In this document: positions 328-11,093 of the stretch, piece after piece | How the letters are laid out: each line of letters begins with the position of its first letter | Position numbering within the stretch: position 1 is the stretch's first letter | From: an uncultured bacterium | GTDB lineage: Bacteria; Schekmanbacteria; GWA2-38-11; J061 | DNA length: 11,157 nt | Assembly: GCA_964549305.1 (NCBI GenBank) | Contig: CAZJVM010000077.1 | Location: 1 to 11,157, forward strand | Direction: 5' to 3' | The notes under the pieces: model-generated | Told to the model about the DNA's origin: nothing | Database searches by the model: none | What the model saw: the letters and a program-made list of their open reading frames with translations, nothing else | Made by a program: the position numbers and the translations under genes

Positions 328-1632
328 ATGTTGAGAAGACTGTTGATGTTCCTGTTCGTTTTATCCGCTTTTTTTATTATTTCTAATCCTTTAATTGTGT
401 CCTCGGAAGAATCTTCAACAAGTGCGAAATGCATAAATTGCCATGAAAAGGAGAGAATTGCGCGCGCAGCAATCGAGGAATGGAGCAAAAGCACCCACGC
501 GAAAAACGATGTGGGATGCTTTGACTGCCACGAAGCAAATCAGGAAGACCCCGATGCCCTATCCCATTACGGAAATTACATTTCTGTCATAGTAACGCCA
601 AAAGACTGCGGGCAGTGCCACGACAGGGAAGCAAATGAATTTCAGGGCAGTCATCACGCGAAAGCAGGCGCCATATTGGGTTCTCTTGATAATGTGCTCG
701 GTGAAATCGTAGAAGGCGTTGCCGCCGCGAACAGCGGTTGTAAGCAGTGCCACGGTTCGAAGGTCGCTCTTCTTCCAAACGGAAAGCTTGATCCTGCAAC
801 ATGGCCCAATACGGGAATCGGCAGAATCAATCTTGACGGAAGCAGGGGTGCCTGCTCTGCCTGTCACTCAAGGCACAGCTTTTCCGTTGAGACTGCACGC
901 CGTCCCGATAACTGCGGAAAATGTCATCTCGGTCCCGATCATCCACAGAAAGAAATTTACGACGAGTCAAAGCACGGAATAGCGTTTTACGCCAATGAAG
1001 ATAAGATGAATCTCAAGGCAAGGCCGTGGATACTCGGCAAGGACTATTCTGCCGCGCCTACCTGTGCCACCTGTCATATGAGTGCTACTCCGGAACTGCC
1101 TGTGACCCACGATGTGGGTTCAAGGATAAGCTGGACATTAAGGCCTGTCGTCTCGAAGAAGCTTGAAAACTGGGAGGAGAAAAGGACAACTATGAAGGGA
1201 GTCTGCACTGAGTGCCATTCGCCTTCATATGTTGACGGTTTTTATAAACAGTTTGATGAAGTCGTGAACCTTTACAATAATAAATTCGCAATACCTGCAA
1301 AGAATATAATGGCAAAACTTAAAGCAGAAAAGAAACTGACGCCCACTCCCTTTGATGATGAGATTGAGTGGACATTCTTCTTTTTGTGGCATCACGAAGG
1401 AAGGCGCGCGAGACACGGCGCGGCAATGATGGGTCCTGATTATACACAGTGGCACGGATTCTTCGAGGTTGCGGAAAGATTTTATGTTGAATTCCTTCCT
1501 CAGGCAGAGGAGCTTTTGCCCGGAGTTACAAAGGAAGTAGATGATATGGACCTTCATAAGTGGAGGAAAGGACTCTCGAAAGAGGAGAGAGACAAGATTA
1601 AGGGTTTTTATCAGAAAAGATACGGGCAGTAA
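328..1632 (+). CDS. hao: Octaheme cytochrome c, hydroxylamine oxidoreductase (HAO) family; periplasmic, probably reductive type
   Basis: Sec-type signal peptide (MLRRLL-hydrophobic-VSS/EE). Eight CxxCH motifs: CINCH, CFDCH, CGQCH, CKQCH, CSACH, CGKCH, CATCH, CTECH. HAO-family signatures CHSRHSFS, CHLGPDHPQKEIY..SKHG, PTCATCHM and the C-terminal helical region HHEGRRARHGAAMMGPDYTQWHG. Confidence 0.9.
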   Translation: MLRRLLMFLFVLSAFFIISNPLIVSSEESSTSAKCINCHEKERIARAAIEEWSKSTHAKNDVGCFDCHEANQEDPDALSHYGNYISVIVTPKDCGQCHDREANEFQGSHHAKAGAILGSLDNVLGEIVEGVAAANSGCKQCHGSKVALLPNGKLDPATWPNTGIGRINLDGSRGACSACHSRHSFSVETARRPDNCGKCHLGPDHPQKEIYDESKHGIAFYANEDKMNLKARPWILGKDYSAAPTCATCHMSATPELPVTHDVGSRISWTLRPVVSKKLENWEEKRTTMKGVCTECHSPSYVDGFYKQFDEVVNLYNNKFAIPAKNIMAKLKAEKKLTPTPFDDEIEWTFFFLWHHEGRRARHGAAMMGPDYTQWHGFFEVAERFYVEFLPQAEELLPGVTKEVDDMDLHKWRKGLSKEERDKIKGFYQKRYGQ

Positions 1633-1721
1633 AACTTTAAAGCAGATATGCGCAGACATTAAGCAGGGAGTCTTCGGAGAATTATTACATCAAAAATATA
1701 AAACAGGATGTATGAAAATTC

Positions 1722-3602
1722 GTGCCTGATTACAAAGTAGAAATACCTGATTACGGCTACTGGAAAAAGCAGATTAAATGTCAGGAAGCATGTCCCGTGC
1801 ATACCGATTCAGGCGGTTATGTGAGGGCAATCGCGGAAGGCAATTATGAACTGGCATATCTCATAGCAAGAGGTCCAAACCCCCTTGCTTCAATTTGCGG
1901 CAGAGTTTGCGGGGCGCCCTGCGAGGCATCGTGCAGGCGCGGTTCAGTTGATGAAGCAGTTTCCATAAGGGCGCTTAAGAGGTTCGTAATTGAAAGTCTT
2001 GCCCTTGAAGGGGATGAAAACCTCGCCGAGAAATTCTTCCACCGTCTTAAAAATTTCATATCACCGCAAAAATGCAGCGCCGGCGAAGAGCTTGCCGCTC
2101 TCAAAGATTTTCTCAACAGTGCCGGCATAAAGAAACCTCAAGGCGAAAAGATTGCCATTATAGGAAGTGGACCTGCGGGACTTGCCGCGGCGCACGACCT
2201 TTGCCTTCTCGGTCTTCGCCCCGTTATTTTTGAAATGGAACCTGTCCCCGCGGGAATGCTCTATCTCGGCGTGCCTGAATACAGACTTCCGAGGGAGATA
2301 ATCGAAGCGGAAGTGGAAGTAATCAAGTCACTCGGCACGGAGATAAAATGTAACATTCAGGTGGGCAAGGACATAACTCTTGAAGAAATCCGCAAGGAGT
2401 ACAAGGCGACTCTTATTGCGGTAGGGGCAAAAAAATCGGCAAAGATTCCCATCCCCGGTGTTGACGCAAAGGGGGTTATCGGAGGTGTTGAACTTCTGAG
2501 GTCAGTGGCGTTGGGCGAAGAGGTAAAGCTCGGAGAAAAGGTCATCGTAATAGGCGGCGGAAATGTTGCCTATGATGTGGCGCGTACCGTTGTAAGGCAG
2601 GCGGAATACGATGTGTCGAGAACGGCATTGAGGCAGGAGTCGGTTAAGGAAGTGAAACTTTACTGTCTTGAATCCCTCGAAGAGATGCCTGCCGATGACG
2701 TTGAAATTAACGAAGGTGATGAGGAAGGAGTGAGCAGGCATAACAGTTGGGGACCGGTGGAAATAATCCTCGATAACGGAAGAGCAAGAGGTGTGAAATT
2801 CAAGAAATGTCTTTCCGTATATGACGAGAACAAGAGATTTTCACCTGTTTTTGATGAAGCAAATATAATGGACAGCGATGCCGATACGGTAATTCTCTCC
2901 ATAGGACAGGTTGCAGACCTTTCATTCATCGATTCTGACAGGGACAAAATCAAACTCACCGAAAGAGGTCAGATTGTAGTAAATCCTGAAACGTTGCAGT
3001 CGTCATCGCAGGATGTTTTCGTGGCAGGCGATATCGCTCATGGCACGAAACTTATGATTGATGCCATTTCAAGCGGAAAGCAGGCAGCAAGAAGTATGTT
3101 CGAAAAGGTAACCGGCAAAAAACTGGAAGTTGACCGCAAAGCAGGTTTTACTCTCCTTGAAAATTATGACCGCGAAAAGGATTACGAAAAATTTCACCGC
3201 ACCCATCCTCCAACCGCCCATCCGTCGGAAAGGAAAGATTCAGTGAAGGTGACCGTTGAAAAAGGATATCCGGAAAAACAGGCAGTGAGGGAAGGCGTAC
3301 GTTGTTATTCCTGCGACATACAGACGATTTTTCACAGCGAAAGATGTATTCTTTGCGCGGGTTGTGAGGATGTATGTCCGCTCAGATGCCTCAGGGTTGT
3401 AAGAGTGGAATCAATAAGAGGTGATGAAAAACTTGAAAAACTTCTTCACCGCAGATACGGAGAAAACGCGCCTAAGAGGGGAAGCGCGGTTATAAAGGAT
3501 GAAACGGAATGTATCAGGTGCGGGCTTTGTGCCAAGCGTTGCCCCGCACTGGCTATAACGATGGAACAATTTAAATTCAAAGAGAGCTATTCAGTCAAAT
3601 AA
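1722..3602 (+). CDS. FAD/NAD(P)-dependent iron-sulfur oxidoreductase (GltD/NfnL/SudA-like) with C-terminal 2x[4Fe-4S] ferredoxin domain
   Basis: GTG start, with an in-frame TGA at 1713 ruling out earlier starts. N-terminal Cys motifs CQEACPVH and CGRVCGAPCEASC. FAD motif IIGSGPAG, GVPEYRLP, nucleotide motif VIGGGNVA, VFVAGD and RCYSC. Ferredoxin motifs CILCAGCEDVCP and CIRCGLCAKRCP. No signal peptide or TM helix. Confidence 0.9.
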   Translation: MPDYKVEIPDYGYWKKQIKCQEACPVHTDSGGYVRAIAEGNYELAYLIARGPNPLASICGRVCGAPCEASCRRGSVDEAVSIRALKRFVIESLALEGDENLAEKFFHRLKNFISPQKCSAGEELAALKDFLNSAGIKKPQGEKIAIIGSGPAGLAAAHDLCLLGLRPVIFEMEPVPAGMLYLGVPEYRLPREIIEAEVEVIKSLGTEIKCNIQVGKDITLEEIRKEYKATLIAVGAKKSAKIPIPGVDAKGVIGGVELLRSVALGEEVKLGEKVIVIGGGNVAYDVARTVVRQAEYDVSRTALRQESVKEVKLYCLESLEEMPADDVEINEGDEEGVSRHNSWGPVEIILDNGRARGVKFKKCLSVYDENKRFSPVFDEANIMDSDADTVILSIGQVADLSFIDSDRDKIKLTERGQIVVNPETLQSSSQDVFVAGDIAHGTKLMIDAISSGKQAARSMFEKVTGKKLEVDRKAGFTLLENYDREKDYEKFHRTHPPTAHPSERKDSVKVTVEKGYPEKQAVREGVRCYSCDIQTIFHSERCILCAGCEDVCPLRCLRVVRVESIRGDEKLEKLLHRRYGENAPKRGSAVIKDETECIRCGLCAKRCPALAITMEQFKFKESYSVK

Positions 3603-3624
3603 ACTGAAAAGAGGGGAGTATCGG

Positions 3625-4080
3625 ATGGAAGATAAAAAAATAGACCGCAGAAGTTTTCTTGAAAAGACCGGATTCTATTCCTTCTGGCTTACAATAGTTG
3701 CATCGGTTACGGGAATGCTCAGGTATTTTCTGCCGGAGGTTTTCGATGAACCGTCAATGTCATTCCGTCTTGGCAAATCGGAGGATTTTTCAAATGAGGA
3801 GGCAATACTCCTCGAGGATAAAAACCTTTTCGTAATCAAAGACTCCGAAGGTCTTTATGTAATTTCCGCCGTATGTACTCATCTCGGATGTATTGTAGCG
3901 CGCACGGACATCGGTTATGCCTGTCCCTGCCACGGGAGCAAATTCGATTTGAAAGGCAATGTGGTGGGCGGACCCGCACCCAGAAGTCTCTCCTGGTTCA
4001 AGGTTTACAGGTCTGCTGAAGGATATCTGATGGTTGATACTTCAAAGAGCGTGAAAATCGGAGAGAAATTAAAGATTTAA
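3625..4080 (+). CDS. qcrA: Rieske [2Fe-2S] subunit of a Rieske/cytochrome b complex
   Basis: Tat motif DRRSFLE followed by a hydrophobic anchor. Rieske boxes CTHLGC and CPCHGSKF, and GPAPRSL loop. RBS GAGGGGAG upstream. Adjacent to cytochrome b. Confidence 0.93.
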   Translation: MEDKKIDRRSFLEKTGFYSFWLTIVASVTGMLRYFLPEVFDEPSMSFRLGKSEDFSNEEAILLEDKNLFVIKDSEGLYVISAVCTHLGCIVARTDIGYACPCHGSKFDLKGNVVGGPAPRSLSWFKVYRSAEGYLMVDTSKSVKIGEKLKI

Positions 4081-4100
4081 TAAACCGGAGGGTTAATAAA

Positions 4101-5654
4101 ATGGCAGGTACCGATAAAAAAGCAATACCTGGTATCTTTATCGATAATCTGAAGAAAATCCCGACTTCATTTAAGGAGGCGTTTGTCAGACACGACCTTC
4201 CGCCGGAATCGGAGAGAGAAAGGGCATCGGCTGTCTTTTCCAATTTTTTTCTTCATCTTCATCCCACAAGAGTCAGCTCACACGTGCTCAAACCTACATA
4301 CACTCTCGGTTTGGGGCTTATGTGCGTATTTCTTTTTCTCATACTTGCTGTAACAGGTGTTATTCTGATGGTTTATTATGTTCCCTATGTGCCTGATGCG
4401 TATGAATCCGTTAAAAATATCCGCTACGCGGTTACGGGGGGACAATTCATAATCAATATCCACAGATGGTCTGCCCACGGAATGGTCTTAATCGTGATAT
4501 TCCATATGATGAGGGTCTTCTACACGGGTTCCTATAAATCCCCGCGTGAATTCAACTGGGTTGTGGGAGTCATACTGCTTGTTCTTACTCTTGCCCTGAG
4601 CTTCAGCGGTTATCTTCTTCCTTATGACCAGCTTGCATACTGGGCAATGACAATCGGCTCGAATATTGCGGGCTCTGTCACTGAATTTACCGATGCTATA
4701 GGAATAACCGGCATTTTCGATGTGGGCAAACTTCAGAAACAGATTTTAATCGGTGGCAATAAAATAGGTGAGTCGGCACTTTTAAGGTTTTATTTTCTAC
4801 ACGTTATTTTCCTTCCCATTGTTATAAGTATTTTCATAGGCGTCCATCTCTGGAGAATCACGAAGGACGGCGGACTTTCAAAACCGGGAGAGGAGACTGA
4901 GAGAATAGATTATCTTGATGTTGACGGGGAGAACGTTCCCAATACTGACAAAACATACGGGCTTATGTCCATTGTACGCGGGAATACTCCGCAGGTGGGA
5001 AATTATACCGACGATACCGTTCCCACCTGGCCCAATGTACTTCTTGCCGAAGGGGCGGTTTTTGTCTTCTGCGTCGCGGTAATGTGCCTTCTTTCCCTTT
5101 TCTTCGATGCGCCGTTGAAGGAGATAGCAAACGCGGCAGTACCTGAAAATCCTGCAAAAGCACCCTGGTATTTTCTCGGGCTTCAGGAACTTGTAAGCTA
5201 TTCGGCGTTTATCGGAGGCATAGTCGCTCCTGCCGTTACGGTAATAGGGCTTATGCTGATACCTTTTCTCGACAGGGAAAGAACGAATGTTGGCGTGTGG
5301 TTCTCAGGTTCTGAGGGAATCAGGATAGTCTTCAGGTCGCTTTTTTTCGGATTCGTGAGCATTGTTCTTTTAATCGGATTTACCGTGCAGTTTGGCTGGC
5401 TCAGAAACTGGTTCCCGGGAATTCCTCAGTTGATGATAATCCTCATTAATCCCGCAACTATAATAATGGCGCTTTTTGCCTACTGGTATTTTAAAATAAT
5501 CAAAGAGACCGGCTCAATGAGAATGGCTTCCATAGGGCTTTTCACGCTTATTATTGTGGGGTTTGCAGTGTTGACTTATGTAGGGGTTTTTCTCAGGGGG
5601 CCTAACTGGGATTTCTACTGGTTCAAATCACAGTGGCCGGGCATTCATTTTTAA
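4101..5654 (+). CDS. qcrB: Cytochrome b subunit (cytochrome b6-like domain fused to subunit IV-like domain)
   Basis: Heme b ligand pairs HRWSAHGMVLIVIFH and HVIFLPIVISIFIGVH. Motifs YKSPREFNWVVG, SGYLLPYDQLAYWA and LLRFYFLH. Subunit IV-like region WPN...PENPAKAPWYFLGLQEL...IPFLD...RGPNW. Multiple hydrophobic helices. GGAGG RBS. Confidence 0.93.
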   Translation: MAGTDKKAIPGIFIDNLKKIPTSFKEAFVRHDLPPESERERASAVFSNFFLHLHPTRVSSHVLKPTYTLGLGLMCVFLFLILAVTGVILMVYYVPYVPDAYESVKNIRYAVTGGQFIINIHRWSAHGMVLIVIFHMMRVFYTGSYKSPREFNWVVGVILLVLTLALSFSGYLLPYDQLAYWAMTIGSNIAGSVTEFTDAIGITGIFDVGKLQKQILIGGNKIGESALLRFYFLHVIFLPIVISIFIGVHLWRITKDGGLSKPGEETERIDYLDVDGENVPNTDKTYGLMSIVRGNTPQVGNYTDDTVPTWPNVLLAEGAVFVFCVAVMCLLSLFFDAPLKEIANAAVPENPAKAPWYFLGLQELVSYSAFIGGIVAPAVTVIGLMLIPFLDRERTNVGVWFSGSEGIRIVFRSLFFGFVSIVLLIGFTVQFGWLRNWFPGIPQLMIILINPATIIMALFAYWYFKIIKETGSMRMASIGLFTLIIVGFAVLTYVGVFLRGPNWDFYWFKSQWPGIHF

Positions 5655-5741
5655 ATATTCGGGGTGTTTTTTGATGATTGAAAAAGCATACAGCAGAGAA
5701 AATAGGAAACCCTCAATCAAAAGAGGAGTGAAATAAGGATA

Positions 5742-8288
5742 ATGAAGAAATTTTTCGCATATTCAAGCATCGCGGCTTTTTTATTAATCGTTATTGCCTT
5801 ATTGATTAATATTAATCCCCAGTGGAAGCATTATCAGAAGGAGTACAAAAAAATTGCAGCAGAAAAAATAAATGACAAGGAAATACTCGAACTCATCCTC
5901 GACAAGAATATTTCTCTTCAGCAAAATTTTGTCAAATCATTCGGAAAGAAAGACCGCTGTATTGCGTGCCATCTTGGAATCGAAAATCCCTATATGGCAG
6001 ATGTTGAACAGCCATTCACGAAACATCCTGGAAACATCCTTGATATCCATCCGGCGGAAAAATACGGCTGTACCATTTGTCACGAAGGGCAGGGGGTAGC
6101 CACGAATACGGAAGATGCTCACGGCATAGGAACACCTTATGTTGAACGGCCTATGCTCACAGGTCCCTTCATTCAGTCGTCGTGTATGAAATGCCACAGG
6201 GATGTTGACTCAATAGGTACGGAAATGCTTTCCCGCGGGAGAATGCTTTTCAGAGAGAATGGTTGTCAGAATTGCCACAGGGTAAAAGGGAAGGGCGGGA
6301 ATCGCGGTCCCGAACTTACATATATATCCGATGCGAGCATTTATATTAAGCATTCCACAGAAAATAACCTTCACGAATATCTTAAAAAGTTCAGTGAAAA
6401 TTATAATATTGCCTTCATCTTCGAATCTGTACTTCAACCGAAAGCACAACCGGAAAATTCGGCAATGGTTGATTTCAAACTTAATGAAGAGGACGCTCGT
6501 GCAATCACAGTTTATCTGAAGGGACTTACGGCGGAAGATGTTCCTGCGTCTTTCATCCCGGAAGAAAATGTTGAAAAACAGACGGGCAGAGAACTTTTTA
6601 TGCAGTACTGTTCTGTGTGCCACGGCAAAAAAGGCGAAGGCACGCGCCTTCCTGAACTTGGCGGAAAAATTGGTCCCGCAATCGGGAATCAGCAGTTTCT
6701 CGCAATCGCGGATACTGCTCTTCTGAAATATATAATTACAAATTCAAAGGGCGGTCCTATGCCCGCATGGGGGACAACGGGAGGACTTGATGAGAGCGAG
6801 ATAAACAAAATTGTCGCTTATGTTAAAAACTTTCGCACGCCTCCCCCGTCTTACAAAGAAGTAGCGGAAGCAGACGGAAACACCGCGTTCGGTGAAATGA
6901 TATTTATGGCAAACTGTTCCGGTTGCCACGGCATAGACGGTAAACACGAAACTGACCTCATAGGTCCCACTCTCAACAATCCCCAGCTTTTATCAATGGC
7001 GACGAAGAGATTCTGGTATGACACACTTACACAGGGAAGGGAAGGAACAGCAATGCCTTCGTGGAATTTTCTTGGCACCCGTCAGATTGCCGATGTTATA
7101 AGTTATCTTGAAAGCTGGAAACCGAAAAAACGTTATGTTTCCACTGCCCTTGCGACTTCCGGTTCTTCTTCCCGCGGCGGAAAATCATTTAGAATGTATT
7201 GTGCCGGATGTCACGGCAAATCCGCCGAAGGCGTAATAGGACCAAGTCTTCGCGCGCCTGAATTTTTGAGGATTGCGGGTTCACGCTTCCTTTATAGAAC
7301 CATTGTTGAAGGACGCGCTGAAACGGCTATGCCTTCATTCAGATATCTTCCTTCGCGGATAGTTGCGGACATAGTCGCGTATATTAAATCATTATACAAA
7401 GGGCCTGAAAAAAACTTGCCCTACATAAGAGTAAGAGGTTCGGAATATAACGGTGAGAATATTTTCAGCCGTATCTGCGCGCAGTGCCACGGCATTAAGG
7501 GTCAGGGCGGGATAGGTCCCGCAATCGGGAGAAAAGGATTCCTTGGGCAGGTTTCAGATTCTTTCCTCAGAGAAATAATACGTTACGGGCGAAGCGGTAC
7601 GCAGATGAGGGCAAATCTCGCGGGGCATGGCGGTCTTGTTGAACTGTCAAGGCGCGATATAGATGACACCATTTCCTACATAAGAACTCTTGATAACAGC
7701 AATAACCTGAACCCTTCATACATAGAAGGTGATGCCCTGTTGGGAAAAGAGAGATTCAGACGCCTTTGCGGGCAGTGTCACGGACTTGAGGGTGAAGGCG
7801 GGATTGGACCTGCAATCGGCAAGACAGCATTTCTGAACGCTGTTAGTGACGGCTTTATTCAGGCAATGGTCACAAGAGGCAGGGACGGAACGGAAATGAG
7901 GCCATTTACCGAAACAGGTGACGGCATTGCGCGCCTTGATGAAAAAGAGCTTTCCAATATCATTGCCTATCTTCGTTCACATTCCCATGAAGTGGATGGA
8001 ATATCAAAGTCTCTCACAGGGACGCCTGTTTCAGGAAAAATGCTTTTTGAAAGGAATTGCGCGCAGTGCCACGGTTATGAAGGAATGGGAAGTTTTGCTC
8101 CGGAGCTTGGAACATCACAATTCCTGAAAGCCGCGTCAGACAGTTATCTGCAGGCGACAATGGCGCTTGGAAGACATCAGACATTAATGAAGCCAATGAT
8201 AAGAGGAGGCGCCGGTGTAGTGGAACTTACATCAAAGGAAGTGAATGACATTATATCGTACCTAAGGACTATACAGAGAGATTATTGA
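5742..8288 (+). CDS. Membrane-anchored decaheme cytochrome c with tandem class I (CcoP-like) domains
   Basis: N-terminal hydrophobic helix. Ten CxxCH motifs: CIACH, CTICH, CMKCH, CQNCH, CSVCH, CSGCH, CAGCH, CAQCH, CGQCH, CAQCH. The last seven sit in class I-type domains (G..LF...CxxCH..GP....M). Confidence 0.9.
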   Translation: MKKFFAYSSIAAFLLIVIALLININPQWKHYQKEYKKIAAEKINDKEILELILDKNISLQQNFVKSFGKKDRCIACHLGIENPYMADVEQPFTKHPGNILDIHPAEKYGCTICHEGQGVATNTEDAHGIGTPYVERPMLTGPFIQSSCMKCHRDVDSIGTEMLSRGRMLFRENGCQNCHRVKGKGGNRGPELTYISDASIYIKHSTENNLHEYLKKFSENYNIAFIFESVLQPKAQPENSAMVDFKLNEEDARAITVYLKGLTAEDVPASFIPEENVEKQTGRELFMQYCSVCHGKKGEGTRLPELGGKIGPAIGNQQFLAIADTALLKYIITNSKGGPMPAWGTTGGLDESEINKIVAYVKNFRTPPPSYKEVAEADGNTAFGEMIFMANCSGCHGIDGKHETDLIGPTLNNPQLLSMATKRFWYDTLTQGREGTAMPSWNFLGTRQIADVISYLESWKPKKRYVSTALATSGSSSRGGKSFRMYCAGCHGKSAEGVIGPSLRAPEFLRIAGSRFLYRTIVEGRAETAMPSFRYLPSRIVADIVAYIKSLYKGPEKNLPYIRVRGSEYNGENIFSRICAQCHGIKGQGGIGPAIGRKGFLGQVSDSFLREIIRYGRSGTQMRANLAGHGGLVELSRRDIDDTISYIRTLDNSNNLNPSYIEGDALLGKERFRRLCGQCHGLEGEGGIGPAIGKTAFLNAVSDGFIQAMVTRGRDGTEMRPFTETGDGIARLDEKELSNIIAYLRSHSHEVDGISKSLTGTPVSGKMLFERNCAQCHGYEGMGSFAPELGTSQFLKAASDSYLQATMALGRHQTLMKPMIRGGAGVVELTSKEVNDIISYLRTIQRDY
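6582..8270 (+). repeat. Six tandem ~92-102 aa monoheme cytochrome c domains (intragenic repeat)
   Basis: CxxCH motifs start at 6609, 6915, 7200, 7476, 7767 and 8058. The shared pattern is CxxCHG..G.G.IGP.(I/L)...FL......L...I..GR..T.M. Exact DNA repeats: GGTCCCGCAATCGGGA (6672, 7515) and TGCGCGCAGTGCCACGG (7476, 8058). Confidence 0.85.
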
Positions 8289-8335
8289 GAATAATTTTTT
8301 TGAAAATATTTCCATAAATTTACGGGAGATTTGAG

Positions 8336-11005
8336 ATGGGAAAAAAAGGTAACGTAACACGCAGAAATTTTTTGAAATGCACCGCGGCGGGAACAATAGG
8401 TGCAGGCCTTGGGCTTGACGGAATGTTGTTTGCTCCGGATAAAGTGCTTGCCGAAGAAATGGGAGCCAGAGGTCTTATTGAAAAAATATCCCAGTGTCCG
8501 TACTGCGGTGTCGGTTGCGGAACTGTCATAAAAGCAGATCCCAAAACAGGAAAAATTGTGGGAGTCGTTCCTGATAAACAGCATCCCACAAACCGCGGTG
8601 TGCAGTGCATAAAGGGACTAAATGCTGATGAACCGACATATGTTGACAGGTTGACCAAAGTTCTCATCAGAAAAGATATGTCCGACCCTGAAAAGGGGTA
8701 TGAGTCGCAGACAAAGGGGAGTTTTGATGATGATGTGTGGAGGGAGGCAACCTACGAGGAAGCGGAAAAGCTTGTGTCTGAAAAGGCAGGCGCTATTGTG
8801 AAAAAATACGGGGGCAACTCCGTAGGCCTTTACGGCTCCGGACAGCTTACCGTTGAAGCACAATGGATGGAAAACAAACTGGTTAAAGGAATCCTTCAGT
8901 CAAACTCCATTGAAGCTAACGCAAGGATGTGTATGACAAGCGCGGTTACGGCGTATTTTGCAACATTGGGTTCGGATACTCCTCCTCTCTGCTATGACGA
9001 CATTGAAATGAGCGATATGATAACCTTCTGGGGGCATAACCCCCGCGAATCTCACCCAATAGTTTTCTGGCGCGCCGCAGACCATAAGAAAAAGAACGGA
9101 ATACCCACATTGGTTTCCGACCCGAGGCGCACCGGAACCGTTCAGGCGCTTGAATCGGTTAATCCCAGAAACAGCCATCACTTCGCTTCTATAAACGGAG
9201 ATATATCCTGCCTGAATGCCATTGCTCACTGCCTTGTAACAGAGCATGAGCAGGTAATCGATTATAAGTTTTTAAAGGAAAATGTAACAGGGTGGCAGGA
9301 GTATATTGCTACGGTTAAAAAAGATTATGCCCCAGAAAAAGTTAAAGACAGGACAATGGTTGAGCCGGCGCTTATAAGAAAAATTGCTTCCGAATGGGCT
9401 GCCGCAACAATGAAGGGCAGAAGGCGCGGGACGGGTGGTGTCATTTCATTCTGGGGTATCGGCTATAACCAGCACATCCACGGTCAGCATAATGTAATCA
9501 GCATCATCAACCTCCACGCCCTGACAGGAAATATCGGCAGACCGGGCGCAGGCCCTTTTTCAATGACAGGACAGCCCAATGCAATGGGTGAACGGTTGAT
9601 GGGGGGATTGACAGGCAGACTTCCTTTTAATGAAGCGCTTGCAAATCAAAAACACCGCGAATGGATGAATGAAAGCTGGAATCTTCCAAAAGGACGGCTT
9701 GATAAGACAGCGGGAGAAAAAAATCCCGGAATGATGATTGGACTTTTCGAGAGGGCGATGAAGGGGGATGTGAAAATGATGTTTTATATGTACACAACCC
9801 ATGTACATCAGCCCGACCTCAATACGCTTATAAGACCCGCGCTGAAGAAGCTTTTTGTTGTTACTCAGGATATTTACAGGCACGCCCCGAATCTTCTTTA
9901 TTCAGATGTTGTTTTCCCCGCGATGACCTGGGGAGAATGGCAGGGCGGAACATATATAAGCTCAGAGAGAAGATTTGATATTTGTGACGGAGTGGGCAAA
10001 ACCGCTGACGGTATTGAAGGATGCCTTCCTGATCTTGATATGGCGATTGACAAGGGTAAAAACATTGCAAAACTTCTCGGTCTGGACGGCGAGAAAATCT
10101 TTCCATACAAGAAAAGGAAATTTCATCCCACGGGAACAGAACTTTATGACGCAGAGGAAGTTTTTGAAGAAATCGTCAAGGCATCAAAGGGAACAGACTG
10201 CGACCTGACAGGTATGCTTGAAGTGAGGAAAAAGGACGGAACGGGTTTATATGACCAGATCAGGATGCACCGCGGTATTCAGTGGCCTGCTCCAAATTAT
10301 GAAATTGCGAAGGCAGGCGGGACAAAGAGACGCTATATGGGGCAGGAAGAAGGCTGGACAAAGAAACCCTATGGCGCGTTCAGGCACAGCGACGGGAAAC
10401 TTCATATAAAGACGTGCAAGCAGGATTATTCCCGGAGAAAAGCAATGTCAAAGGAGCTTAATAAATTCGGCACGCAAAAAGGTTTTTACACCATTGACCA
10501 TATGGACATCCTCAAGAAGGCGCGCGATATGGCGCTTACTCCTGAATTGCCTGATTTTGAATACAAGGGAAGAAAATGGGATAAGGTTCCAAAGAATAAG
10601 TATCCCTTCTGGCTTGGGCTTGGGATTGTTTATGAACATTTCCATACGGCAAAGACAATTCGCGGAGCAACAACAAGACGTCTTGTTCCTGAACAGTATG
10701 TTGAGATGCATCCTGAAGATGCAAAGGAAAACGGTCTTCATGACGGAGATAAGATACGCGTTACTACAAGAAGAGGGTCTTATGAAGGAAGGGTGAGTGT
10801 GGGTGGAATCAGAAGCAAGGTAAAACCTGCAAGAACCGAAGTGCCGAAAGGTTACATCTTCTCACCGTGGAATCTTTCAGTTGCAGACTCGGCAGACCCT
10901 AAAAAGAATAAATGGCTTGTTAACGCAGTTTCCCACAGGGCTTATGATCCTGTTTCAGGGCAGGCGGATTTTAAAAAGCTTGCGGCAAGAATAGAAAAGA
11001 TTTGA
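8336..11005 (+). CDS. napA: Tat-exported Mo-bisPGD nitrate reductase catalytic subunit (NapA/NasA/NarB clade), divergent
   Basis: Tat signal TRRNFLK...VLA/EE. [4Fe-4S] motif CPYCGVGC...CIKG. YGSGQ, Mo-ligand motif NARMCMTSAV (Cys-Met, typical of nitrate reductases, not the Cys/Sec-His of FDH), WGHNPRESHP, LTGNIGRPGAGPFSMTGQPNAMG and EHFHT. C-terminal VEMHPEDA...DPVSGQADFK. Confidence 0.8.
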   Translation: MGKKGNVTRRNFLKCTAAGTIGAGLGLDGMLFAPDKVLAEEMGARGLIEKISQCPYCGVGCGTVIKADPKTGKIVGVVPDKQHPTNRGVQCIKGLNADEPTYVDRLTKVLIRKDMSDPEKGYESQTKGSFDDDVWREATYEEAEKLVSEKAGAIVKKYGGNSVGLYGSGQLTVEAQWMENKLVKGILQSNSIEANARMCMTSAVTAYFATLGSDTPPLCYDDIEMSDMITFWGHNPRESHPIVFWRAADHKKKNGIPTLVSDPRRTGTVQALESVNPRNSHHFASINGDISCLNAIAHCLVTEHEQVIDYKFLKENVTGWQEYIATVKKDYAPEKVKDRTMVEPALIRKIASEWAAATMKGRRRGTGGVISFWGIGYNQHIHGQHNVISIINLHALTGNIGRPGAGPFSMTGQPNAMGERLMGGLTGRLPFNEALANQKHREWMNESWNLPKGRLDKTAGEKNPGMMIGLFERAMKGDVKMMFYMYTTHVHQPDLNTLIRPALKKLFVVTQDIYRHAPNLLYSDVVFPAMTWGEWQGGTYISSERRFDICDGVGKTADGIEGCLPDLDMAIDKGKNIAKLLGLDGEKIFPYKKRKFHPTGTELYDAEEVFEEIVKASKGTDCDLTGMLEVRKKDGTGLYDQIRMHRGIQWPAPNYEIAKAGGTKRRYMGQEEGWTKKPYGAFRHSDGKLHIKTCKQDYSRRKAMSKELNKFGTQKGFYTIDHMDILKKARDMALTPELPDFEYKGRKWDKVPKNKYPFWLGLGIVYEHFHTAKTIRGATTRRLVPEQYVEMHPEDAKENGLHDGDKIRVTTRRGSYEGRVSVGGIRSKVKPARTEVPKGYIFSPWNLSVADSADPKKNKWLVNAVSHRAYDPVSGQADFKKLAARIEKI

Positions 11006-11055
11006 TAAGCATATATGCGGTTGTTTAATTAGAGTGTGTTTTTTGAAGATAAATT

Positions 11056-11093
11056 TCAGGGCAAGCCTTTTATAAGGATGCCCTGATTTTTTT
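11056..11093 (+). terminator. Rho-independent terminator
   Basis: Hairpin TCAGGGCA-AG-CCTT-(TTAT)-AAGG-A-TGCCCTGA immediately followed by T7, starting 50 nt after the last stop codon. Confidence 0.85.

Follow-up and report, generated by a model that had tools for sequence, protein, structure and literature searches.

Rieske/cytochrome b complexes have been linked to nitrate reduction and to HAO-family cytochromes in several organisms. In Campylobacter jejuni, knockout evidence indicates that the periplasmic nitrate reductase Nap is fed by the complex QcrABC in an electrogenic step (PMC6195509). Caldithrix abyssi carries a nap-Rieske/cytochrome b-epsilon-Hao locus, and conservation of energy by its Rieske/cytochrome b part has been proposed from the genome (PMC5317091). 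The anammox bacterium Kuenenia stuttgartiensis has a flavoprotein-bearing Rieske/cytochrome b complex with an HAO-like subunit (PMC12954380, PMC12485887). Here we report a six-gene cluster of an uncultured bacterium (Schekmanbacteria) in which a putative complex of the Kuenenia kind is encoded together with an HAO-family octaheme cytochrome c and a molybdenum (Mo) enzyme related to periplasmic nitrate reductases. The window, by which we mean the whole stretch of DNA analyzed, is one entire contig (C77) of 11,157 nt from a genome (G000) of 2.94 Mb in 169 contigs, rated 100% complete.

Like the complexes Kuste4569-4574 (R/b-3) and Kustd1480-1485 (R/b-2) of K. stuttgartiensis, the window has a Rieske protein, a cytochrome b of the b6 kind with a conserved N-terminal His, a subunit-IV-like part with five helices, a cytoplasmic NAD(P) subunit and, where cytochrome f/c1 would stand, a multiheme cytochrome c; R/b-3 also contains an HAO-family octaheme. 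Unlike the Kuenenia gene sets, the window has cytochrome b6 and subunit IV fused, its cytochrome is a decaheme with six class-I domains, its octaheme belongs to another HAO subfamily (~25% identity) and comes first, and the last gene encodes a Nap-like Mo enzyme. The host does not belong to the anammox bacteria, and the Mo family occurs in none of the 16 hydrazine-dehydrogenase (HDH)-positive, that is anammox, genomes among 401 sampled Planctomycetota.

The C. abyssi locus (Cabys_2564-2556) reads napM-napA-napG...napH-Rieske-cytochrome b-epsilon-Hao, encodes a tyrosine-less HAO-type octaheme of its own, and resembles ours in bringing a periplasmic Mo nitrate reductase (a putative one in the window), NapG/NapH and Rieske/cytochrome b into one locus of a host without NrfA. 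As described there, it has a Nap-family NapA with a tetraheme NapM, and neither an NAD(P) flavoprotein nor a decaheme (PMC5317091), whereas the window has a Mo enzyme of a new clade, a flavoprotein gene inside the complex genes and a different gene order. The QcrABC-NapAB system of C. jejuni is likewise a periplasmic nitrate reductase fed through Rieske/cytochrome b, with an electrogenic step there (PMC6195509), but there the genes for Qcr and Nap are canonical and lie apart, and the unit includes neither an NAD(P) subunit nor an octaheme; the window is known from its genes alone.

Each pair of parts therefore has a precedent, and the finding is a conserved new variant for which we infer substrates and mechanism from the sequence. 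A first-pass annotation, made from the letters alone, had suspected novelty in the energy-conserving Nap/HAO wiring; the precedents in C. jejuni and C. abyssi take much of this away, and what we did not find in print is the combination of an NAD(P)-linked complex with this Mo clade. No publication was found on an NAD(P)-linked Rieske/cytochrome b complex outside anammox bacteria, on a link between a flavoprotein-bearing complex and a Mo enzyme, or naming this Mo clade, with the proviso that supplements could hold comparative tables.

The membrane module

The six open reading frames (ORFs) of the window all lie on the plus strand and are separated, from 5' to 3', by 89, 22, 20, 87 and 47 nt. 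The co-oriented layout with gaps of 20-89 nt had been described in the first-pass annotation, and the ORF coordinates agree with it, as does a motif count with its total of 18 CxxCH (eight in gene 1, ten in gene 5). Its list of parts in one conserved unit, namely Rieske protein, cytochrome b, decaheme, Nap-like Mo enzyme and HAO-family octaheme, is likewise borne out by Pfam and NCBIfam and by a related genome, G004, from the same family and another genus. Our collection holds only five species of this phylum; in G004 all six genes occur in the same order at 66-82% amino-acid identity, indicating that the arrangement is not due to chance.

What that annotation overlooked is gene 2 (1722-3602, plus strand), which encodes a 626-aa FAD/NAD(P) iron-sulfur flavoprotein of the GltD/NfnB-like kind. 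The protein is cytoplasmic and carries a Fer4_20 domain at its N-terminus and a 2x[4Fe-4S] domain at its C-terminus (Pfam Pyr_redox_2, 1.8e-27; Fer4_20, 2.1e-17; Fer4, 3e-09), it matches the NCBIfam NAD(P)-binding protein PRK12771 at 381 bits, and its PDB relatives include NfnA/NfnI and GltD. We regard it as the putative counterpart of the NAD(P) oxidoreductase subunit of the anammox Rieske/cytochrome b complexes. The place of its gene is kept in G004, in four other GTDB loci, in three more Planctomycetota genomes and in the anammox clusters described below.

The Rieske [2Fe-2S] subunit (gene 3; 3625-4080, plus strand; 151 aa; Pfam Rieske, 8e-13) begins with a twin-arginine-like motif and a membrane anchor. 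Its best solved relatives are the Kuenenia proteins 9rk4 (1.4e-17) and 9rk3 (1.3e-15), which are Kuste4569 and Kustd1480, respectively (PMC12954380), and all b6f Rieske proteins rank below them. Both cluster-binding Cys/His boxes are kept, and the second is followed by Ser and Phe as in Kustd1480, a protein measured at +335 mV (PMC12954380).

Gene 4 (4101-5654, plus strand) encodes a fusion of cytochrome b6 with a subunit-IV-like part (517 aa; Pfam Cytochrome_B, 1.8e-35; best PDB relative a cytochrome b6, 2.9e-36). A crude hydropathy scan finds eight segments, five of them after residue 300 in the subunit-IV-like part, and a five-helix rather than three-helix part is a feature stressed for the anammox complexes (PMC12954380). 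The four heme-ligand His residues and a further one, His52 in an N-terminal extension, are invariant in all nine sequences compared, three of which come from anammox genomes. His52 aligns with His43 of Kuste4571 and His62 of Kustd1481, and AlphaFold3 models place an extra heme b between these residues of two cytochrome b monomers, toward the flavoprotein (PMC12954380). Since all seven residues named in that work are present at the stated positions in the ORFs of one of the anammox genomes (G151), the mapping of residues to the window is sound; the basic residues Lys267 and Arg550 are kept in the window as Lys255 and Arg606.

Gene 5 (5742-8288, plus strand) encodes a membrane-anchored decaheme cytochrome c of 848 aa, in which an N-terminal anchor is followed by a four-heme c7/NapC-like part and six class-I cytochrome c domains (ten CxxCH; Pfam Cytochrom_C in six stretches, 1.1e-65; Cytochrome_C7, 2.1e-10).

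The 16 HDH-positive Planctomycetota genomes served as the anammox reference set, and six of them were searched with gene 2. Genome G151 carries the clusters Rieske-cytb6-flavoprotein-SUIV-multiheme (L232) and Rieske-flavoprotein-cytb6-SUIV-multiheme-HAO (L233), where SUIV stands for subunit IV, and genome G315 carries flavoprotein-Rieske-cytb-multiheme-HAO (L234), the first four genes of which are in the order of the window. Across these three clusters from two genomes, identity to the window is 34-36% for the flavoprotein, 32-36% for the Rieske protein and 42-50% for cytochrome b, and the N-terminal part of the decaheme is 29-32% identical to the anammox multihemes. By these comparisons the G151 and G315 clusters are the gene sets described for Kustd1480-1485 and Kuste4569-4574, and the membrane module of the window has their architecture and not that of a plain bc complex.

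Other loci add to the picture of this complex type. At one Planctomycetota locus (L243, G340:C137) the flavoprotein homologue (52% identity) lies 3' of the Mo gene and of NapG/NapH-like genes, indicating that modules have been shuffled between lineages. Like Kuenenia, the window's own genome has three Rieske/cytochrome b loci: the window, C55 at ~4058-9567 and C88 at ~1411-2950. The C55 locus encodes a fused cytochrome b that shares the N-terminal His motif, a cytochrome of 883 aa with eight CxxCH and, in place of the flavoprotein, a 251-aa 4Fe-4S protein; judging from the gene order in G004, C55 probably sits just 5' of the window. A 334-aa NIR_SIR-domain protein is encoded directly 5' of the octaheme gene in G004 (L088:15829-16833), with a counterpart in the window's genome at C55:902-1900; it scores 127 bits against the model for sulfite reductase subunit C (cut-off 324). 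A homologue 58% identical is found in the anammox genome G151 (L233:14169-14972), where the Rieske gene of the Kuste4569-74-type cluster is ~2.5 kb away, and this protein appears to be a conserved neighbor of this complex type.

The molybdenum enzyme and its clade

Gene 6 (8336-11005, plus strand) encodes an 889-aa Mo-bisPGD enzyme with a twin-arginine translocation (TAT) signal for export and an N-terminal Molybdop_Fe4S4 domain (Pfam Molybdopterin, Molydop_binding, Molybdop_Fe4S4, TAT_signal). The first-pass annotation had called it NapA-like, and this stands insofar as the protein falls in the Nap/Nas group and is nearest to NapA: its best PDB relative is NapA 2nya (5.3e-77), and a Foldseek search gave Desulfovibrio desulfuricans NapA as the best match to its mediocre AlphaFold2 model (pLDDT 70.1 from 23 close sequences; used for the fold search only). 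Against the NapA models TIGR01706 / NF010055, it reaches 311.4 bits (cut-off 930.55) and 335.8 bits (cut-off 904), about one third of what is required, whereas canonical NapA genes of other genomes score 1500-1610 bits with the same NapA model. In a tree of 52 sequences (quick search, LG+G4; the two outgroup rows are long branches), the 24 rows of the family form a clade of their own (SH-aLRT 100), the stem of which measures 1.3 changes per column; this clade, ten NapA and 16 Nas-like sequences are separate clades, the three-way split among which the tree leaves unresolved. By these measures the enzyme is not a canonical NapA but a member of a tight third clade that has no name and stands next to NapA and Nas, so that nitrate as its substrate is inferred; that it reduces nitrate to nitrite is nonetheless what we consider probable.

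In this group of enzymes a Cys that is the ligand of Mo is followed by a Met. The Cys-Met pair is present in the family, NapA and Nas rows, whereas the formate dehydrogenase (FdhA) of the same genome has Cys-His and scores over its cut-off; a formate dehydrogenase reading of the Mo enzyme is ruled out by this pair, and its score with the Fdh-alpha model is 316 bits (cut-off 666). Scores with the arsenite oxidase, DMSO reductase and tetrathionate reductase families are far lower. With canonical Nap (NapAB plus NapC/NapGH) the enzyme thus shares TAT export, Mo-bisPGD, an N-terminal 4Fe-4S domain, the Cys-Met pair, partners of the NapG/NapH-like and at times of the NapC/NirT kind, and a putative immediate donor that is a c-type cytochrome. 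It differs in its separate clade, in an Fe-S motif spelled as in Nas and not as in NapA, in clade-specific insertions seen in the alignment, and in a donor that would be a class-I diheme unit in place of NapB. None of the six window proteins matches a NapB or NapD family in Pfam or NCBIfam, and the cytochrome domains found are of class I (Cytochrom_C, Cytochrome_CBB3).

The family is tight. Among the 120 matches listed, identity to the window protein is 63-83%, and over every member compared it is 58-83%. The source databases mislabel these proteins or name them only 'molybdopterin oxidoreductase', 'hypothetical', 'anaerobic selenocysteine-containing dehydrogenase' or 'ferredoxin-nitrate reductase', and the sources of the matches listed are labeled Omnitrophica, Verrucomicrobia, Hydrogenedentota, Myxococcota, Bdellovibrionota and others.

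A GTDB scan with the Mo enzyme gave 80 best listed loci, of which 15 belong to the clade (58-64% identity) and the other 65 are Nas-like (27-33%). Four of the 15 have the order flavoprotein-Rieske-cytb-multiheme-Mo, in metagenome-assembled genomes labeled Gemmatimonadales, Phycisphaeraceae, Calditrichaceae and Planctomycetaceae; in eight, one of them from the cultured species Photobacterium frigidiphilum, a class-I diheme cytochrome alone precedes the Mo gene; and three have none of the five other window proteins. An octaheme gene is nearby in none of the 15. The gene-neighborhood comparison proposed with the first-pass annotation recovers five of the genes, without the octaheme, in four of the 15 loci listed, and all six genes in G004. 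Thirteen of the 401 sampled Planctomycetota genomes carry the Mo clade: the order flavoprotein-Rieske-cytb-multiheme-Mo is complete in four, the flavoprotein gene is found 3' of the NapG/NapH-like genes in one, a cytochrome alone precedes the Mo gene in three, four have neither, and in one the contig is too short to tell.

In proteobacterial loci, diheme cytochromes are encoded as separate proteins 5' of the Mo gene; they can be aligned with each of the three pairs of class-I domains in the decaheme, best with residues 465-650 (34-42% identity). Because the class-I domains of the decaheme are homologous to the diheme partner in these simpler operons, the decaheme is a plausible direct donor to the Mo enzyme.

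The genes on the 3' side of the Mo gene are of the Nap type. NapG/NapH-like genes follow it in all nine Pfam-annotated loci, and a set that we denote G-H-X-G-Y follows it in all 11 Planctomycetota loci with downstream DNA; in this module there are two genes of the NapG-like kind, a NapH-like gene in one or two copies, and genes for two conserved proteins without a name, of ~185 and ~510 aa. NapC/NirT is also present at three of the 15 GTDB loci (L011, L015 and L019). A NarX/NarL-like pair adjoins L013, Rrf2 regulators adjoin L007 and L016, the latter also adjoined by a hemerythrin-domain protein, and MobA, MoaA and MoeA are among the neighbors of Mo-clade loci.

Two further features of these neighborhoods were observed. 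Large genes for thioredoxin-like DsbH (DUF255) and DsbD-type proteins flank the Mo operon at L009, L012, L014 and L019, in different lineages, and might bear on substrate or maturation. Crude ORF calling gave a 1290-aa frame at L017:8423-12295 with ~520 residues ahead of the Mo enzyme, and a 1448-aa frame at L020:5560-9906 across cytochrome b and multiheme; these long frames are possible gene fusions or start-codon artefacts.

The octaheme, the host and the extent of the locus

The first gene (328-1632, plus strand) encodes a 434-aa HAO-family octaheme cytochrome c with a Sec-type signal peptide recognized by eye. The assignment to the HAO family, already made in the first-pass annotation, is borne out by eight CxxCH, an HAO-type heme core, and matches to PF13447 (Multi-haem_cyto, 4.7e-27), 4qo5 and HAO structures. 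The best solved relative is 4qo5 (IhOCC; E 1.7e-45), with Nitrosomonas HAO reaching only 1.6e-23, and the protein is closest to IhOCC, being of the kind named epsilon-Hao. We consider it a candidate nitrite/hydroxylamine reductase. HMMER aligns the protein with HAO and with the HDH model, but not as far as the C-terminal region that holds the cross-linking tyrosine; that this tyrosine, and with it a P460 heme, is missing is presumed solely by analogy with IhOCC as the nearest solved relative, which is an octaheme nitrite reductase without P460 heme (PMC9250108). Apart from the shared eight-heme core, the window protein is shorter than IhOCC (434 versus 521 aa) and aligns to it over a part only, and it is encoded within a Rieske/cytochrome b operon.

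The octaheme family is large and tight, with 58-75% identity among the 120 matches listed; homologues of 60-75% identity come from many phyla. Among 80 metagenome loci of this family, the best rows listed, none has the exact arrangement of the window. At least eight have Rieske and cytochrome b genes directly 5' of the octaheme without a flavoprotein, and at two, within or beyond those eight (L156 and L197), a NapA-like gene with NapG and NapH is present as well, which is the arrangement published for C. abyssi. In all seven unrelated genomes examined that have flavoprotein-Rieske-cytb-multiheme-Mo, an HAO-family gene is found elsewhere, a count that comes without a control for the frequency of HAO in those phyla.

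Profile searches of the window's genome found no NrfA, NirS, NirK or NarG over cut-off and neither a second Nap-like gene nor a canonical NapA; nor was NrfA among its 27 multiheme ORFs (26 with at least four CxxCH outside the window and one with three). The cluster thus supplies the only candidates found for respiratory nitrate/nitrite reduction, in keeping with the NrfA-independence that had been predicted for it. The single heme-copper oxidase adjoins CcoO/P, and no NOR-type heme-copper enzyme was found, making NO a less likely product of the octaheme. An anammox host is ruled out: within the genome the HDH model matches only the window octaheme, at 75 bits (84 bits in the scan of the window proteins), against a cut-off of 900. 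Heme-rich ORFs are scattered over the genome (C14:9940-13281, C57, C88 and C42), among them one with 25 CxxCH in 675 aa and one with 16 in 434 aa, both of which exceed the cut-off of the DmsE-family decaheme model, and several more ORFs have 11-14 hemes; together with the cbb3 oxidase they suggest extracellular or metal-linked electron transfer in the host.

The palindrome and the terminator of the first-pass annotation are real features, and both recur at the same positions in G004. The imperfect palindrome, with a TGAC-N4-GTCA core, is at 240-255, 72 nt 5' of the first start codon, and G004 has a perfect palindrome with the same core 5' of the orthologous first gene. It is a candidate operator of a dimeric regulator, perhaps similar to CRP/FNR-type boxes. 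On the other side, 3' of the Mo gene, a terminator-like compound hairpin plus T7 occupies 11056-11093 on the plus strand; the hairpin itself (11056-11086) folds at -17.6 kcal/mol and is followed by seven T (11087-11093). G004 has a hairpin of -41 kcal/mol with five T at the same position, ahead of a NapG-like gene. A simple consensus scan of the window for promoters and terminators did not pick up the hairpin at 11056-11086, and its hits showed no excess over shuffled sequence (15 promoter-like versus 17.5 expected; 13 terminator-like versus 12.2 expected).

In G004 (L088:1-4860), six further genes follow 3' of the hairpin on the same strand, encoding a NapG-like (203 aa), a NapH-like (319 aa), an unnamed (186 aa), a second NapH-like (327 aa) and a second NapG-like protein (201 aa) and, last, an unnamed membrane protein that has at least 430 aa and a weak likeness to NapH. 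In the window's genome, contig C103 carries homologues of four of these, from the first NapG-like to the second NapH-like gene (C103:8-2989), the first beginning at base 8-20, indicating that the locus is cut by the end of C77. The locus, though perhaps not the transcript, thus runs on beyond the window. A search for sequencing runs listed no RNA data set that contains the window.

The Mo and octaheme genes are absent from G003 (same genus) and from G001 and G002 (neighboring family), with completeness of 97, 99 and 70%, respectively, indicating that the cluster is accessory in this lineage. It was perhaps acquired laterally; the Mo tree places the window beside sequences with the source labels Omnitrophica and Verrucomicrobia.

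A model of electron flow and its alternatives

We give an even chance to the reading that the window encodes the core of a periplasm-facing nitrate/nitrite respiratory module built on a Rieske/cytochrome b complex of the anammox kind. Menaquinol would be oxidized at the Qo site, and the high-potential electron would pass from the Rieske cluster to the decaheme. From there electrons would go to the Mo enzyme, with nitrate probably being reduced to nitrite, and to the octaheme, where, as we are slightly inclined to believe, nitrite or hydroxylamine would be reduced, most likely to ammonium. The low-potential electron may cross the b hemes and continue over the extra heme b at His52, the Fe-S chain and FAD to NAD(P)+, a step that we put forward tentatively and at less than even chance; alternatively, it would enter an ordinary Q cycle. 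For anammox bacteria, quinol-driven reduction of NAD(P)+ by bifurcation has been proposed, with no classical Q cycle (PMC12954380), and at the published potentials of about -75 mV for menaquinol, +420 mV for the nitrate/nitrite couple and -320 mV for NAD(P)+ (PMC6195509, PMC12954380), such a bifurcation would be downhill overall. Proton translocation by a Q cycle, as the first-pass annotation had it, would not be the expected mechanism if this proposal holds. The wiring drawn there from quinol over Rieske/cytochrome b and decaheme to the Mo enzyme needs amending as well: as NapG/NapH-like genes always follow the Mo clade, Rieske/cytochrome b is probably not the sole route from quinol, and those just past the window would probably provide a second quinol route to the Mo enzyme.

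An ordinary proton-motive Q cycle, in which both electrons would reach nitrate or nitrite via the decaheme, energy would be conserved as in bc1/Qcr, and the flavoprotein would be an accessory, seems to us unlikely. It can draw on the electrogenic feeding of Nap by Qcr in C. jejuni (PMC6195509), on the same proposal for the C. abyssi locus (PMC5317091) and on how common plain Rieske/cytochrome b-to-octaheme wiring is in the metagenome loci without a flavoprotein. The flavoprotein gene, however, stands inside the genes of the membrane complex and keeps this place in G004, in the other GTDB and Planctomycetota loci and in the anammox clusters, cytochrome b retains the N-terminal His proposed to pass electrons toward the cytoplasm, and functional Qi sites are not clearly supported in such anammox complexes (PMC12954380). 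That the flavoprotein serves instead as electron input, with NAD(P)H oxidized and electrons moving outward over the b hemes in a redox-balancing, non-conserving NAD(P)H:nitrate/nitrite oxidoreductase, is very improbable. The flavoprotein is of the reversible GltD/NfnB kind, periplasmic nitrate reductases serve redox balancing in some bacteria, and neither RuBisCO nor CODH/ACS, which could explain a demand for more NAD(P)H, was found in the host; yet a high-potential Rieske protein and an intact Qo scaffold of the b6 kind would serve no purpose if quinol were not oxidized, and outward electron flow would presumably dissipate the membrane potential.

The Mo enzyme could also act on a substrate other than nitrate, such as another oxyanion, or as an oxidase, with the octaheme in a separate role; this too we judge unlikely. 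In its favor are the scores below all curated cut-offs, the separate clade with its long stem and specific insertions, the DsbH/DsbD genes at four loci, the ever-present ~185-aa and ~510-aa partners, and the canonical NapA that stands beside the Mo clade in seven of 16 other genomes, a co-occurrence that fits a different substrate as well as an isoform. Several nitrate reductases in one genome are nothing unusual, however, and the Cys-Met pair is that of NapA/Nas, the recognizable partners are all of the Nap type (NapG, NapH, NapC/NirT), and NarX/NarL-like or Rrf2 regulators adjoin some loci. Moreover, two clade genomes (G007 and G009) with full-length NirS and NirK have neither canonical NapA nor NarG, that is, no other Nap or Nar, and NarG is missing too in eight of the nine clade genomes without canonical NapA.

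Several observations weigh against a nitrate/nitrite module on an anammox-type complex. The Mo enzyme is under the cut-off of every curated model, its clade sits on the 1.3-change stem, and one of the seven genomes with canonical NapA, that of Photobacterium frigidiphilum JCM 12947 (locus L019), has two copies of it. Between the octaheme and the HAO-like subunit in the anammox cluster, identity is only ~25%. In the membrane module, Arg247/Arg266 (Arg247 in Kuste4571) is replaced by Thr254 and Arg511 of Kuste4570 by Gly547; the extra heme b is an AlphaFold3 prediction, and NAD(P)-reducing bifurcation is a proposal even in anammox bacteria (PMC12954380). A predicted contact between cytochrome b (residues 1-300) and the flavoprotein lends weak support: the median score is 0.48 (best of three controls, 0.00), at least 68% of contacts are shared between runs, and the partner pLDDT is at least 77. 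The mark used is reached by 58 of 80 solved complexes and by two of 110 mismatched pairs, and scores of 0.60 or less account for seven of the 80 and for both mismatches. Neither RuBisCO nor the CODH/ACS beta subunit (CdhC) was found in the genome, in which the reverse TCA cycle was not searched for, and a special autotrophic need for NAD(P)H is thus not evident. Finally, C77 and C103 are joined by synteny, their ends having no overlap, and the terminator-like hairpin stands between the six genes and the NapG/NapH-like genes.

A broader reading, which we regard as rather doubtful, is that periplasmic nitrate reductases have a third clade, founded by the Mo enzyme and present in more than ten phyla with its own NapG/NapH-type module. 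In five phyla or more this enzyme would be firmly wired to a Rieske/cytochrome b complex with an NAD(P) link, a general device that would bifurcate quinol electrons to a nitrogen oxide (nitrate, then nitrite) and to NAD(P)+.

The same architecture, with the cytochrome b His, is found in the phylum of the window, in Gemmatimonadota, in Calditrichota and in Planctomycetota, tied there to a Nap-like enzyme and not to hydrazine metabolism. If the nitrate/nitrite module reading holds, these organisms would offer independent systems, with a simple acceptor, for testing the NAD(P)H-forming bifurcation proposed for complexes that have so far been treated as an anammox peculiarity. If the Mo clade reduces nitrate, surveys based on napA and narG miss it, including in genomes with NirS and NirK that have no recognized nitrate reductase. 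As a member of the clade is present in a cultured Photobacterium, its substrate should be accessible to ordinary genetics.

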